A stretch of DNA of 64,000 bases from Eubacteriales bacterium (GTDB lineage Bacteria > Bacillota > Clostridia > Oscillospirales > JAAYXM01): the NCBI GenBank assembly GCA_045636865.1, contig JAZTYJ010000025.1, positions 10,679-74,678 on the forward strand. Direction: 5' to 3'. Numbering within the stretch: position 1 is the first letter of the stretch; each line of letters starts with the position of its first letter. Positions 19,153 to 44,288 of the stretch are shown here, piece by piece. Under the pieces are notes generated by a model. The model had not been told where the DNA came from and did no database searches. It worked only from the letters and a program-made list of their open reading frames with translations. The translations under genes and the position numbers were made by a program.

Positions 19153-19228
19153 GCTGTTATAGCTCAGTAGGTAGAGCGCATCCTTGGTAAGGATGAGGTC
19201 GGCGGTTCAAATCCGCCTAACAGCTCCA
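19153..19228 (+). tRNA. tRNA-Thr (anticodon GGT), CCA encoded
   Basis: Acceptor GCTGTTA/TAACAGC, D-arm GCTC-AGTAGGTA-GAGC, anticodon arm CATCC-TTGGTAA-GGATG, T-arm GGCGG-TTCAAAT-CCGCC. Confidence 0.9.
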
Positions 19229-19230
19229 AA
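19182..19230 (+). repeat. 49-bp direct repeat, copy 1 (3' half of tRNA-Thr; putative attL core)
   Basis: CCTTGGTAAGGATGAGGTCGGCGGTTCAAATCCGCCTAACAGCTCCAAA is identical to 44240-44288. Confidence 0.9.
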
Positions 19231-19232
19231 CT

Positions 19233-19275
19233 AAAACCCCTGTAACCGCAACGGTTACAGGGGTTCTTGTTTTAT
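19233..19275 (+). terminator. intrinsic terminator after tRNA-Thr
   Basis: AACCCCTGTAACCG-caa-CGGTTACAGGGGTT followed by CTTGTTTTATT. Confidence 0.8.
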
Positions 19276-19348
19276 TCTGAAGTTGTGCAGTTAGCGGAGT
19301 TTGTATAACGATTGTATAACAAATGTGTTTTTCAGTATCAAAATACAT

Positions 19349-20272
19349 TTATCTAACAAAACCACTTTCTTGTAATCTTTGATCCAGGTGGTCAAATACA
19401 TACTGGTATTTATCAAGACTGACGCCCGATATATTGGCATATGCCTTTTGAATTATGTCAGGCAAACTTTCGATATCTCTCGCTTTGTATTTATTATCGC
19501 GATTAAGTCTTCCTTCTGCGCCCATACTATGTATCGTTCGTGAACCCATCTGATATATTTCTATTGTCTCTATTTTCTTTGTGGAAGAATTAAGAATTGA
19601 ATTCAAGAAAGCTTTATCGTTGACACTTGGCATAATAATATAATCAGGCTTTAAACGTTCAATATCAGAACGGATATATTCATGAGAATCACTCAGAAAA
19701 CTAATATTGCCTGCGTAGTCTTTATTTATGTTTTTCTTTTCTTTTTTCAGTGCTTCTCTGTCGGATAGGTTTGGATTTTCCCTGACTATGCGCTGGTATT
19801 CAGTTTCTATACTGAATTTCCCGTAATTACCAAATGCGATTGTTTCATAAAACGCACGAGGTTCATCCACAGTCTCTCCTCTTATAATTCCAGCAAGATA
19901 CATAACCGCAGTTGCCAGGCTTCCTCTGTTCATCGGAGTTATGTGAACATTCGGAAAGAACGGTGTTGCATTCAAAAAGGACTCTTCAAAACATTTGCGG
20001 TGTCGATTCTCCGCCTGTGTGTCATCATCCAGCCACGGACGATTGGTTTCCTCACCACAACAATAATCAGTCAGAACCTCTGCACTCGCATAAACAAGGA
20101 TTCTCTTTTCTTGTTCAGCATAATACTTGCCTACAAACGGAATTGTCGGCACAACCATTTCACTTCTTTTGCCCTCGCGTATTTTATGAACTGCCCATTT
20201 TGGAAGTCCAGCCTGCTGTATTTTTCTATAATCATCAAGCAACTCGTTTATTATCTGTTCGTAAGTATTCAT
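19349..20272 (-). CDS. hypothetical protein, distant UDG-fold-like paralogue (last gene of the 4-gene operon)
   Basis: 307 aa: ...PTIPFVGKYYAEQEKRILVYASAE...IERLKPDYIIMPSVNDKAF. It shares the pattern [aromatic pair]-x-(K)R-hydrophobic strand-E and L(K/R)P-x-x-hydrophobic strand with the 239-aa and 224-aa neighbours. Confidence 0.3.
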   Translation of the reverse strand: MNTYEQIINELLDDYRKIQQAGLPKWAVHKIREGKRSEMVVPTIPFVGKYYAEQEKRILVYASAEVLTDYCCGEETNRPWLDDDTQAENRHRKCFEESFLNATPFFPNVHITPMNRGSLATAVMYLAGIIRGETVDEPRAFYETIAFGNYGKFSIETEYQRIVRENPNLSDREALKKEKKNINKDYAGNISFLSDSHEYIRSDIERLKPDYIIMPSVNDKAFLNSILNSSTKKIETIEIYQMGSRTIHSMGAEGRLNRDNKYKARDIESLPDIIQKAYANISGVSLDKYQYVFDHLDQRLQESGFVR

Positions 20273-20289
20273 CCTCTTATTCCCTCTCT

Positions 20290-21009
20290 TTAATCATCAA
20301 GCAAAAAAGTTTTAAATATGTTATTTGCGTGATTAAAACTATCCTCTCTGCTCCAACCCGGTCTTGACGGATGATAGGAATTCGCAAAAATCGTTGATTC
20401 TCTTTCAAAAAAGCGAACACCGTTCTTTATCTTTTCTTCAGCATCGTTTACAAATACTTTCTTTGCAAAATCGAATGTTCCTCCACACAATACCAATGTC
20501 GGTTTCAACTCACTCAACTGATGCTTCAATATCTCTCTGCGCTGACTATTATCAAGATATTTATCCATCTCATTCCAGTCAGTACTTTCTGTGCCCCAAC
20601 TCTTTTTGAGATTAACAATCGATACATTCAGCAGCGATCCACACAATTTATCGTCAACTATTATTCCGTTTTCGTCGATTAACTCAACTACTTCCGGCAT
20701 TCTTTTTTCATCAATACATATATTGAACATTCTCGACCACATGGCTATATTCCTGTAAACAGAACGATAAAGAGGTTCTTCCTGCAGAGCCTGCTTATAA
20801 ACCCAATCCATATAATTCCAATCAGTCAGAACATCGTTTCTATCACCATTATTGTCGTTTCCATTTGTCTCTTTCAGCAAGAGCATCAATCTTTTATCCC
20901 GCGAAAAGAAGTGCTCGCTTACTACCCCATCGAAACATATTCCGTTATTCGGATTGTTATCTGTGATAATCTCTCTGTGCTGCTTCAAATATTCCTTAAA
21001 CACAATCAT
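20290..21009 (-). CDS. hypothetical protein with uracil-DNA-glycosylase-superfamily-like motifs
   Basis: 239 aa: KRLMLLLKETNGND (position of UDG motif A), ELKPTLVLCGGTFDF and ANSYHPSRPGW (HPS-type motif B). Motif-level inference only. Confidence 0.35.
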   Translation of the reverse strand: MIVFKEYLKQHREIITDNNPNNGICFDGVVSEHFFSRDKRLMLLLKETNGNDNNGDRNDVLTDWNYMDWVYKQALQEEPLYRSVYRNIAMWSRMFNICIDEKRMPEVVELIDENGIIVDDKLCGSLLNVSIVNLKKSWGTESTDWNEMDKYLDNSQRREILKHQLSELKPTLVLCGGTFDFAKKVFVNDAEEKIKNGVRFFERESTIFANSYHPSRPGWSREDSFNHANNIFKTFLLDD

Positions 21010-21073
21010 CTTCCTTTCGCAACTATTTCATTTTAATTATATCACACCTGCTGTTTTTTTCAAGAAAAGCATA

Positions 21074-21427
21074 TCACACAACATATCCCTCGTTACACAT
21101 ATGGCACTGGTAGTGTTCATCATATGAAAGGATATATTTTTTGTCTTTATACACATCTGTTACCCTGTCTATATCTCGCTCCATGCATCTGTCGTAATAG
21201 ATAAGATATGTATCATCGCTCTTTCGGTAAACCACGCGACCTCTGGGGAAGTAGTCAAAATCAACACCGAATTCCTTTGCATAGTTCTTCTGCCAGATGA
21301 GGTTATGGCTGTATGGATAGTTTTTAAAATCCCCATACTCCTCCGCATCCGCAAGCGAACAAGAGTGAAACAAAAGCCCACCTTCTACAAAAAAGAAAAG
21401 CGCAGGTCCGATTTTGTTATTATTCAT
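21074..21427 (-). CDS. hypothetical protein (117 aa)
   Basis: AAGGAG RBS. Sequence FFFVEGGLLFHSCSL...YGDFKNYPYSH...DYFPRGRVVYRK...CHMCNEGY. No family recognised. Confidence 0.4.
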   Translation of the reverse strand: MNNNKIGPALFFFVEGGLLFHSCSLADAEEYGDFKNYPYSHNLIWQKNYAKEFGVDFDYFPRGRVVYRKSDDTYLIYYDRCMERDIDRVTDVYKDKKYILSYDEHYQCHMCNEGYVV

Positions 21428-21458
21428 ATTCTTCTCCTTTCACTTTTTAACGTATGAT

Positions 21459-43352: not shown

Positions 43353-43423
43353 AACTTTTCATCCTCCTTTCACAAAATTAAAATAATTATATTTTTGTAT
43401 GCAAACTTTATTCTTGATATATT

Positions 43424-43452
43424 ATTATAAAACATTTTTTGATTTTTTTCAA
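43424..43452 (-). promoter_or_regulatory. promoter of the pel operon
   Basis: Minus strand: TTGAAA, 17 nt, TATAAT, ~70 nt upstream of the pelD-fusion ATG (RBS AAAGGAGGA). Confidence 0.6.
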
Positions 43453-43478
43453 CACCCACCGTTATATTATGACAATAA

Positions 43479-43513
43479 AATCCCTATGATAGAACAAAAC
43501 TATCATAGGGATT
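43479..43513 (-). terminator. terminator after the 60-aa gene
   Basis: AATCCCTATGATAG-n7-CTATCATAGGGATT followed by TTTATT on the minus strand. Confidence 0.7.
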
Positions 43514-43516
43514 CAT

Positions 43517-43699
43517 TTAACGTTTTAACTTTGTTTTACTTTGCCTTTTTCTCATGTTGCACGATTTCCCGTTATCAAAGACACCGATGAAAGTTTTGTC
43601 TGTAATCTTCAACTCATTGGCATGAGTTGCTGTGTGAACTTCGTGGTGAAGTCCAGGGTTTCTCGTCTGATTATTATTTACATAGTAAAGCTGATACAT
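43517..43699 (-). CDS. small conserved-looking hypothetical protein (60 aa)
   Basis: Strong RBS AGGAGGT 8 nt before the ATG, plus its own terminator. The MYQLYYVNNNQT...HHEVH...IGVFDNGKSC pattern recalls a widespread family of small YYVN...HEVH proteins (recollection only). Confidence 0.55.
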   Translation of the reverse strand: MYQLYYVNNNQTRNPGLHHEVHTATHANELKITDKTFIGVFDNGKSCNMRKRQSKTKLKR

Positions 43700-43817
43700 T
43701 GTAATTTACCTCCTGCCACTCAAAAGCAGCTTTATATTTTAGTATCTATGTGAACTAAAACATGAAAAAACTTGCCTATTCAACGACGCTCCTTCCCGGC
43801 AAAATTCCCCGAAGACA

Positions 43818-43932
43818 TTGACAAGCAAGTTCAAATATGATAAAATTACAAAACCTTGGTAATCAATCATTAACTTGGTTGATGCCTTCAAAGCTCCGAC
43901 GATATTGGCGTGTTGTCGGAGTTTTGCTTTTT
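43818..43932 (+). ncRNA. candidate ~80-nt small RNA (promoter to terminator unit)
   Basis: TTGACA (43818-43823), 17 nt, TAAAAT (43841-43846). An internal hairpin ATCAA..TTGAT is followed by terminator CTCCGAC-n14-GTCGGAG-TTTTGCTTTTT (43894-43932). No RBS/ORF lies in between. Confidence 0.4.
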
Positions 43933-44239
43933 CACATTTCAAGCATCCTCACTATACCATAGTTACCAGTTTTTTGTCAAGCGATTTCCACAACATATTA
44001 CATATAATATATATATAGTATACAACATCTTGTGTTTTTTCATTTATTTGTACCATCTTTCAAATTCACAACCTATTTTCCTCTTCTGTGTTGACTGCTC
44101 ACCTCTTGTTCAATTTTTGTTTAACAACGAGATTTTGGCAGATGCAAGATATTCGTTATAATCGTTTTGGTTTTTGTGTGTTTTGGTGATATATCAAGAC
44201 ATTTCACCCGCGAAAAGTTAGTGAATTTTTCGCAGGCCA

Positions 44240-44288
44240 CCTTGGTAAGGATGAGGTCGGCGGTTCAAATCCGCCTAACAGCTCCAAA
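44240..44288 (+). repeat. 49-bp direct repeat, copy 2: orphan 3' half of tRNA-Thr (putative attR)
   Basis: Identical to 19182-19230. The upstream sequence cannot form the acceptor, D or anticodon 5' strands, so this is a fragment and not a tRNA. Confidence 0.9.

Follow-up and report, generated by a model that had tools for sequence, protein, structure and literature searches.

Within a 64,000-nt stretch of contig JAZTYJ010000025.1 (hereafter the window, whose positions are used throughout), the 3' half of a threonine tRNA gene, tRNA-Thr(GGT), occurs twice, once inside the intact gene and once, without its 5' half, about 25 kb downstream. These two copies and the interval that they enclose, which we refer to as the island, are the subject of this analysis. 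The copies are called attL-type and attR-type cores, after the left and right attachment (att) sites that bound an integrated element, and three hairpins at the locus are called T1, T2, and T3. The features on which the argument depends are as follows (ORF, open reading frame).

19069-19145, + strand: tRNA-Asp(GTC) gene (ARAGORN and Rfam), which shares a promoter unit with tRNA-Thr
19153-19228, + strand: intact tRNA-Thr(GGT) gene, the target gene (ARAGORN; Rfam tRNA, 74.9 bits)
19182-19230, + strand: attL-type core, the proximal repeat copy, within tRNA-Thr (exact identity to 44240-44288)
19236-19306, + strand: T1 hairpin with about 40 nt of conserved tail (hairpin 19236-19264, 13-bp stem, 3-nt loop)
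44240-44288, + strand: attR-type core, the displaced tRNA-Thr 3' half without a 5' half (exact identity to 19182-19230)
44289-44334, + strand: T2 hairpin with tail, a diverged T1 homologue (hairpin 44289-44317, 13-bp stem, 3-nt loop)
44471-44505 (35 nt) and 44506-44539, + strand: relic of an SSB-like gene 3' end and bidirectional terminator, a mark of the ancestral neighborhood on the attR side
53459-53490, + strand: T3 hairpin, AAAAGCCTTGAAGCTTTCGCTTCAAGGC, from which the window is again collinear with relatives; also present at 51938-51969
53814-55616: pepF, with small membrane ORFs between T3 and this gene
56244-56852: SSB-like gene

The repeat and its flanks can be read directly from the sequence. 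The two cores are identical at 49 of 49 positions and lie in direct orientation, with identity ending immediately at both edges, and the repeat runs from the last 2 nt of the anticodon stem (2 nt 5' of the anticodon loop) through the CCA end plus 2 nt. A preliminary description of the window had reported an exact, perfect 49-bp repeat with these limits inside an intact tRNA-Thr(GGT) gene, and it had also stated that the distal copy lacks the 5' half and is followed by a terminator of its own; both statements hold. Upstream of the distal copy, the sequence differs from the tRNA gene already at base -1, ARAGORN called no tRNA at 44240-44288, and a terminator-like hairpin with a T-tail was called at 44286-44320, right after the copy. 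A 25-mer taken from the repeat, allowed up to 3 mismatches, found only these two sites in the window (0 expected, per shuffled sequences), and a search of the island for internal, degenerate att copies returned none. The tRNA-Thr 3' half is identical among all genus-level relatives that we fetched. With an intact tRNA gene and a cognate fragment in the same orientation, 100% identical and on one replicon, the locus has the pair of features by which a tRNA island is recognized. As a separate observation, a sigma-70-like promoter match (TTGGCA-16-TATAAT, 11/12) lies about 75 nt 5' of the tRNA fragment (region 44135-44330, + strand), and transcription of the orphan half-tRNA up to T2 could give an RNA of some 160 nt.

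Past the 49-bp repeat, a further stretch of about 47 bp is homologous in diverged form, T1 and T2 being homologous hairpins. Both fold stably (T1, -25.6 kcal/mol, z = -6.6; T2, -22.2 kcal/mol, z = -5.3), and when they are aligned in register, 8/13 stem pairs are the same, 4/13 differ by compensatory changes, and 1/13 has changed on one side, for an identity of 19/29 in the hairpin and 13/18 in the tail, with similar T-rich tails. Identity thus falls from 49/49 in the tRNA part to about 66% right at the tRNA end. Because of this abrupt fall and the four compensatory changes, we prefer a crossover between two already diverged versions of the locus to a local duplication that has drifted, since in a duplication old enough for about 66% identity the unselected tRNA half should have decayed too. 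T1 would then be an arm borne by the element that also serves as the replacement terminator, and T2 is taken to be the terminator that resided behind the tRNA before the insertion; the outer stem of T2 equals that of the T3 hairpin in a relative (L081), where T3 is the tRNA-Thr terminator.

T1 is a mobile sequence version, as is seen directly from its distribution. A metagenome scan for the tRNA 3' half returned one 2.4-kb contig (L117), in which T1 and the following 40 or so nt are 98.6% identical to the window over 74 nt, while yunB is only about 70% identical, and past this stretch the genes of L117 differ from those of the window. L081 lacks T1, though it is nearer to L117 than the window is, as judged by a 148-nt stretch 5' of tRNA-Asp. 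The 31-nt core of T1 occurs in exact form in only 4 other species genomes of the collection searched. One of its hosts is Sporobacter sp. CAXXEF010000001.1, a 2.7-Mb single-contig genome in which the core follows an intact tRNA-Thr and two tRNA-Thr 3' fragments, with an identical T1 hairpin at each of the three loci.

L107, 1709-1819: Sporobacter T1 locus
L104, 3517-3602: Sporobacter T1 locus
L106, 2526-2603: Sporobacter T1 locus

The Sporobacter tRNA-Thr differs from that of the window at about 13 of 76 positions (counted by eye), and both Sporobacter fragments have their 5' limit at or in the anticodon loop. Between L104 and L106, which are contiguous, lies an 8.9-kb interval with transporter and enolase-type genes, bounded at each end by a fragment plus T1, in which no integrase was found; the preceding interval holds restriction-type genes (type I restriction-modification specificity subunit, Mrr, NucS-like). 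These loci point to a hotspot of repeated insertion at tRNA-Thr(GGT) with the T1 hairpin in two genera, and they provide a simple tag with which metagenomes can be searched for such islands, including integrase-less ones that Islander and similar programs drop by design. As a sequence, the tag for an attP-type site (the attachment site of an incoming element) would read CCTTGGTAAGGATGAGGTCGGCGGTTCAAATCCGCCTAACAGCTCCA followed by the T1 hairpin.

The nearest genomes are metagenome-assembled genomes of uncultured Eubacteriales/Oscillospiraceae with 75-81% LigA identity, and the comparison with an empty site rests on other species at 70-81% amino acid identity. The tRNA-Asp/tRNA-Thr pair lies 3' of yunB-ligA in relatives L001, L002, L081, L103, and L117. 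In L081, the pair is followed directly by the T3 hairpin, two small membrane ORFs, pepF, and the SSB-like gene, whereas in L001 and L103 T1 comes next after tRNA-Thr, and a single unrelated gene, which is an SDR-like ORF in L001 and codes for a TPR protein in L103, separates it from T3-pepF-SSB. Positions 53456-56852 of the window are collinear with all three relatives by blastn. Because T3-pepF-SSB starts at 53459 in the window, the variable region measures about 34 kb (~19270-53458) instead of 25 kb and includes the tRNA fragment. The locus without the interval is thus directly observed in L081, L001, and L103, as expected of a tRNA island, and the earlier reading of the repeat as attL/attR gains from this, the anatomy fitting a pair of tRNA 3' halves and the interval being absent at the locus in the nearest relatives. 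The empty site that had been predicted, namely, tRNA-Thr followed by the terminator at 44289, did not turn up in any genome or metagenome searched, and L081 has T3 and pepF in its place. A metagenome scan for the attR junction (tRNA end plus T2) found nothing, nor did a locus search based on YunB or exact-protein look-ups of the MurQ-like and LigA-like products for sister strains. No third, degenerate tRNA fragment is present left of T3 in the window, L001, or L103. We would also like to note that L081 carries two extra tRNA-Thr(GGT) genes of different sequence (its positions 12359-12434 and 12446-12521), inverted and just 5' of tRNA-Asp, at a site that is occupied by yunB in the window and in L001.

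A recombinase was sought among the ORFs of 19.3-53.4 kb, the principal (non-overlapping) ones being compared with Pfam and those left unannotated with NCBIfam, PADLOC, and PHROGs. None of the ORFs scanned in this region matched a recombinase of the tyrosine or serine type, an excisionase, a relaxase, or a phage protein, and a six-frame translation of 43353-44540 had no match in Pfam at E<=1. The interval therefore lacks the PF00589 tyrosine integrase by which tRNA islands are defined, and 19.3-53.4 kb lacks the combination of an integrase of its own with a conjugation, mobilization, or virion gene set that would mark an integrative and conjugative element (ICE), an integrative and mobilizable element (IME), or a prophage. 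The preliminary description had likewise reported neither a recombinase nor a remnant of one in the interval, and this is upheld by Pfam, NCBIfam, PADLOC, PHROGs, the six-frame translation, tblastn, and a structure model, none of which revealed a recombinase; integrase pseudogene traces in the spacer next to attR, for which it had proposed a check, were found neither by six-frame Pfam nor by tblastn with a phage integrase. A 36-nt blastn match between this spacer and a Bacillus phage integrase gene proved to be due to chance, as it covers only A/T-rich first codons and the island has no tblastn match to that integrase. A C-terminal ORF at the right edge of the window was considered as a large serine recombinase and set aside, its sole homologue being itself (125 aa). 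No cognate integrase was seen in the 64-kb window. Scans of viral contigs with T1 and with the tRNA half found no element that carries an attP site, and blastn of the tRNA plus T1 against phages and plasmids returned ordinary tRNA-Thr genes only.

On the attR side, the SSB relic lies about 180 bp past T2 and is 89% identical to the 3' end of the genome's own SSB-like gene (56817-56851), which is intact and 12 kb away from the relic. The relic and its terminator are contiguous with the end of a MurQ-like gene. This arrangement is that of L081 and L082, in which the bidirectional terminator stands between the neighboring SSB and MurQ-like genes. Since the outer stem of T2 is like that of the L081 tRNA terminator and is followed by the SSB relic, the terminator, and the MurQ-like gene, this flank is best regarded as ancestral. 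By these sequence marks, the displaced fragment sits on a descendant of the DNA that once lay downstream of the tRNA, which is what the integration model demands.

The flank continues into a second inserted block, which extends the variable region to T3.

44541-53442, no strand assigned: second inserted block with the MurQ-like gene, an HTH/BadF-type kinase, 644-aa and 443-aa sugar-enzyme-like ORFs, and an AraC regulator (Pfam)
Within 44541-53442: small membrane ORFs and a 487-aa ORF (51979-53442)

This block is missing between tRNA-Thr and pepF in the relatives, and the MurQ cluster of L081 and L082 is located beyond pepF-SSB. The order in the relatives is accordingly tRNA, pepF-SSB, MurQ cluster, and that in the window is tRNA, island, fragment, MurQ cluster, pepF-SSB; the MurQ cluster has been relocated by a separate, unrelated rearrangement. 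For this swap we considered both a duplication-and-loss route and a capture route, and no junction supports either. There is no third tRNA fragment at the right end of the MurQ block and no recombinase in it. The two copies of T3 (51938-51969 and 53459-53490) flank the 487-aa ORF at 51979-53442, and T3-type hairpins appear to be a small family of terminators reused at block boundaries. A 71-nt direct repeat (44322-44392 and 48590-48660, 87% identity) that forms a long imperfect hairpin, ATGACCTCATCCCT...AGGGATAAGGTCAT, has its first copy directly behind T2, its second in an intergenic position within the MurQ block, and no Rfam family match.

We read the locus, with moderate confidence, as a decayed, integrase-less tRNA island of the kind known as a cis-mobilizable element (CIME), made by site-specific integration and followed by the loss of its integration module. 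Under this model, a circular DNA carrying the tRNA-Thr 3' half, the T1 terminator, and a short arm would have met the resident tRNA-Thr(GGT), and a crossover would have taken place within the stretch, beginning at the anticodon loop, over which the two are identical. The tRNA would have been rebuilt with the incoming 3' half and T1, and the original 3' half, T2, and the old downstream neighborhood would have been displaced by 25 kb; the recombination module would then have been lost and the content remodeled into a mosaic of three modules. We infer that a tyrosine integrase made the join, that this integrase was later lost, and that the events took this order. Only tyrosine integrases are known to target tRNA genes (PMC4383910). 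A regenerated tRNA gene with a displaced 3' fragment is the standard signature of an island, and integrase crossovers in tRNA genes fall into classes at the anticodon loop, the T loop, and the T/acceptor junction (PMC4383910). Here, identity begins 2 nt before the anticodon loop, which places the crossover in the anticodon-centered "A" class. The mechanism itself, integration at a tRNA site and then decay, is already textbook, and three things are mildly new, namely, the group to which the host belongs, a terminator carried by the element and identical across genera, and the recurrence of integrase-less intervals bounded by a tRNA-Thr half plus T1.

The 25-kb interval holds three cargo modules and a spacer, as follows (c-di-GMP, cyclic di-GMP).

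19349-24905: cargo module 1, a WYL-regulator cassette of 7 ORFs (307, 239, 117, and 270 aa on the - strand; WYL, 325 aa, and ORFs of 293 and 224 aa on the + strand)
25349-27562, + strand: cargo module 2, a GH18/SLH-domain protein (Pfam)
27738-31660, - strand: c-di-GMP module with an EAL/degenerate-GGDEF gene and a GGDEF gene (29360-31660) (Pfam)
29232-29315, - strand: c-di-GMP-I riboswitch (Rfam RF01051, 63.7 bits), at the 5' end of ORF 27738-29315
31785-43352, - strand: cargo module 3, an operon of 8 genes (HD-GYP-type, 295-aa ORF, DUF2194, PelF-like GT4, PelG, CotH, VTC, DUF4956) (Pfam)
43353-44239, no strand assigned: AT-rich spacer beside attR, 887 bp, 33% GC, with promoter-like and terminator-like sites
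43517-43699, - strand: 60-aa ORF within the spacer, with an AGGAGG ribosome-binding site and a hairpin of its own

Within the WYL cassette, the WYL domain was found by Pfam, and the other 6 ORFs have no family match in Pfam, NCBIfam, PADLOC, or PHROGs. The cassette has a free-standing counterpart in L108 with 77-81% identity at the nucleotide level, which is flanked by amidohydrolase and DUF896/transketolase genes and has no tRNA in its vicinity (L108, 6085-10924; the corresponding region in L110 is 8173-10915). The 307-aa ORF beside attL was considered as a cryptic integrase, which its size and position would fit, and this was rejected because its structure model (pLDDT 95) folds like a uracil-DNA glycosylase (UDG); the top fold matches all belong to the UDG superfamily (SMUG1/UdgX-type), with low TM-scores. 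A PDB profile search with this ORF was empty, and its family of 201 homologues carries no functional name, the few that are named being called "hypothetical protein". The 239-aa ORF has the motif HPSRPG at its end, which we take to be typical of the uracil-DNA-glycosylase superfamily. The cassette may be an uncharacterized defense or DNA-modification-sensing system.

Orthologues of the GH18/SLH gene occur in L118-L120 (71%, 62% identity), amid glycolytic and other ordinary chromosomal genes. In the c-di-GMP module, the riboswitch overlaps the 5' end of the EAL/GGDEF ORF, and the true start codon must therefore be further downstream; judging from this arrangement, the EAL/GGDEF phosphodiesterase gene is probably itself under c-di-GMP control. 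The gene order of the Pel-CotH-VTC operon is kept in 5 related species (L112-L116) at 70-96% amino acid identity and at other loci. Homology with L114 reaches into the GGDEF gene, from 30615, and homology with the relatives stops at about 43454. In L113, L114, and L116, the three in which DNA upstream of the operon is visible, its neighbors are ordinary metabolic genes, and between L114 and the other Pel loci no upstream similarity was found. No tRNA was found in the DNA visible at these three loci, and the upstream ORFs scanned there (those nearest the operon) gave no integrase match. The cargo is thus a mosaic of three modules with counterparts at separate chromosomal sites in related bacteria (in related species for GH18/SLH and for c-di-GMP/Pel), and the Pel operon belongs to the gene pool of the genus and lies between att sites in the present genome. 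If our reading of the locus holds, these att sites would be usable, and the complete c-di-GMP-controlled Pel exopolysaccharide operon of an uncultured, gut-type clostridium could be moved as a block by an integrase acting in trans.

In the light of these counterparts, the preliminary description went too far in calling everything between the repeats accessory, as each module has a counterpart elsewhere in related bacteria, and its inference that the whole Pel/c-di-GMP locus would be horizontally acquired cargo is unsupported as stated, the operon being present in 5 related species. Its account of 43353-44239 as AT-rich and non-coding was right as to the AT-richness; the stretch is not wholly non-coding, given the 60-aa ORF with its AGGAGG site. 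The composition check that it had proposed for the two junctions shows a step at one of them only: GC changes from 0.467 to 0.39 at 19.2 kb, with no GC step at 44.3 kb, and tetranucleotide correlations between segments are 0.68-0.92 throughout. Neither a foreign composition nor a mobility gene set, either of which would be looked for in the cargo of a tRNA island, was found.

Several observations weigh against site-specific integration followed by decay. The genomes found did not include one of the same species, nor was the exact site in its state before insertion (tRNA-Thr and then T2) seen. L001 and L103 have T1 but no displaced fragment before T3, and under the integration model they would therefore be remnants that lost attR. 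No integrase, excisionase, relaxase, phage gene, or conjugation gene, nor a remnant of one, supports a mobile origin, there are no arm-type repeats near the ends, and terminal inverted or direct repeats between the island ends are not above chance. The cargo looks native, its GC and tetranucleotide profile being unchanged at 44.3 kb, and the Pel operon and the GH18 gene are common to related species. Finally, a single RecA crossover over 49 bp would leave an identical scar.

If the island were still active, attL and attR would be used by a tyrosine integrase from another part of the genome or from an ICE or phage that visits the cell, and the Pel/c-di-GMP block would excise and move as a unit; this is in our view an unlikely reading of these sequences. 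It would agree with the published definition of a CIME (PMC5704250), and it would suit the perfection of both 49-bp cores, even though the distal one is free of selection on the tRNA, as well as the near identity of the T1 arm to that of another species' element; furthermore, at least one such integrase-less interval, and perhaps a second, is stacked between tRNA-Thr fragments in Sporobacter. Nevertheless, the perfect identity needs no more than a recent event to explain it, since the tRNA half does not vary within the genus, and neither a cognate integrase within 64 kb nor an attP-carrying element in the viral, phage, and plasmid collections was seen.

RecA-dependent homologous recombination would require no site-specific recombinase and could have taken the form of a Campbell-type single crossover over the 49 bp or of a replacement from a related donor, anchored at the tRNA and at pepF. 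We consider this rather improbable. The tRNA half, 100% conserved in relatives, would serve as the homology anchor, the cargo is native to the genus and of unremarkable composition, no integrase trace is present, and L001 and L103 have different single genes swapped between a conserved T1 and T3 with no fragment left behind. However, 49 bp is short for efficient homologous recombination, and a replacement by double crossover leaves no displaced fragment. In addition, the incoming copy would have to end exactly at the anticodon loop, and the same 5' boundary in two independent Sporobacter fragments is an integrase hallmark (PMC4383910). With the window, this makes three independent cases of a start at the anticodon loop that homologous recombination leaves unexplained.

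Because integrase-less intervals bounded by a tRNA-Thr half plus T1 recur, we also allow a small chance that cassettes are exchanged in trans, i.e., that the tRNA-Thr(GGT) 3' half with T1 is a dedicated recombination site of Oscillospirales, with a recombinase from another locus stacking and exchanging integrase-less, multi-gene blocks downstream of the tRNA in a loosely integron-like manner. If so, the 31-nt hairpin would be identical across genera through recognition by the recombinase and not through termination, and operons for biofilm (Pel/c-di-GMP), defense, and sugar use would be shuffled between species as cassettes bounded by att sites.

A by-product of intrachromosomal rearrangement, i.e., a segmental duplication starting inside the tRNA and followed by deletions or translocations, would mark no acquisition at all and is quite doubtful. 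The swap of the MurQ cluster and pepF-SSB relative to L081 and L082, the SSB 3' relic, the doubled T3 hairpin, and the counterparts that all of the cargo has in relatives would be at home in such a history. On the other hand, it is contradicted by an unselected tRNA half at 49/49 next to T1 and T2 at about 66% and by a T1 shared at 98.6-100% with distant genomes, and it does not account for nearest relatives with nothing or one gene between the tRNA and T3. A misjoin of the metagenomic contig at the repeated tRNA sequence is very improbable, for although the window appears to come from an uncultured organism whose close relatives are all metagenome-assembled genomes and its proteins lie on one 78,964-bp contig in the protein collection, a misjoin would leave a whole tRNA and not a half with unique sequence directly on each side, the attR flank has coherent relics of the expected neighborhood, and the same architecture is found in the independent 2.7-Mb single-contig Sporobacter genome.

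Elsewhere in the window, GC is lowest (0.34-0.39) at 56900-64000, a segment with aldehyde dehydrogenase (ALDH), iron-containing alcohol dehydrogenase (Fe-ADH), and TetR-like genes. It also has two paralogous 248-aa ORFs, a 34-nt repeat (57205-57238 and 60690-60723), and, in a 151-aa ORF (61071-61526, - strand), the catalytic domain of a serine recombinase (Resolvase). A further mobile or decayed element, independent of the tRNA repeat, may be present here. The conserved left flank has a T-box leader (10159-10402, - strand) 5' of a LeuA-like gene (8689-10098) and a glycine riboswitch (13650-13741, - strand) 5' of an Na+/alanine symporter gene (12139-13629).

When the island, read as a decayed tRNA-site insertion, is set beside known systems, it has only the recurring boundary of a tRNA half and a perfect hairpin in common with the integron; no IntI-type integrase lies beside an array here, and the units are multi-gene blocks of 9-25 kb. 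Among the closest known systems are tandem islands at RNA genes, such as those at ssrA in Dehalococcoides and the Islander arrays, in which copies of the target-gene 3' end delimit successive blocks, as they do most clearly in Sporobacter. The islands in the ssrA-type arrays of Dehalococcoides reportedly keep, as a rule, an integrase of their own. In contrast, the window has no integrase and a single fragment, and its second block has no fragment at the far end. The Islander call of a tandem array needs an integrase in each member (PMC4383910). With single islands of the Islander type, the window shares an intact tRNA gene with a perfect, direct 3' fragment, a repeat that starts at the anticodon loop, an island side that brings a new 3' half and terminator, and an interval that is missing at the locus in relatives. 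The differences from those islands are that the composition of the cargo is not foreign, that related bacteria have counterparts of it, and that the inserted DNA, when compared with other species, runs 9 kb past the fragment; moreover, the island fails the Islander filter because there is no PF00589 integrase in the interval (PMC4383910).

There is also a likeness to the CIMEs of streptococci, which are ICEs or IMEs that have decayed but retain attL and attR and that can be mobilized once accretion with a related element has taken place (PMC5704250). The differences are that no partner ICE or IME is visible for the present island, that no remnant of a conjugation or integration gene is found here, the putative descent from an ICE or IME being read from the att anatomy alone, and that the host is an uncultured clostridium of the Oscillospirales type. 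As in a CIME, however, both att sites are intact, with an attL arm 98.6% identical to another species' locus, no integration or transfer genes are detected, the element is seated at the 3' end of a tRNA gene, and the Sporobacter locus is an analogous case in which such units are stacked. "Decayed island or CIME-like element", the label proposed at the outset from the sequence, thus stays the best one for this locus.

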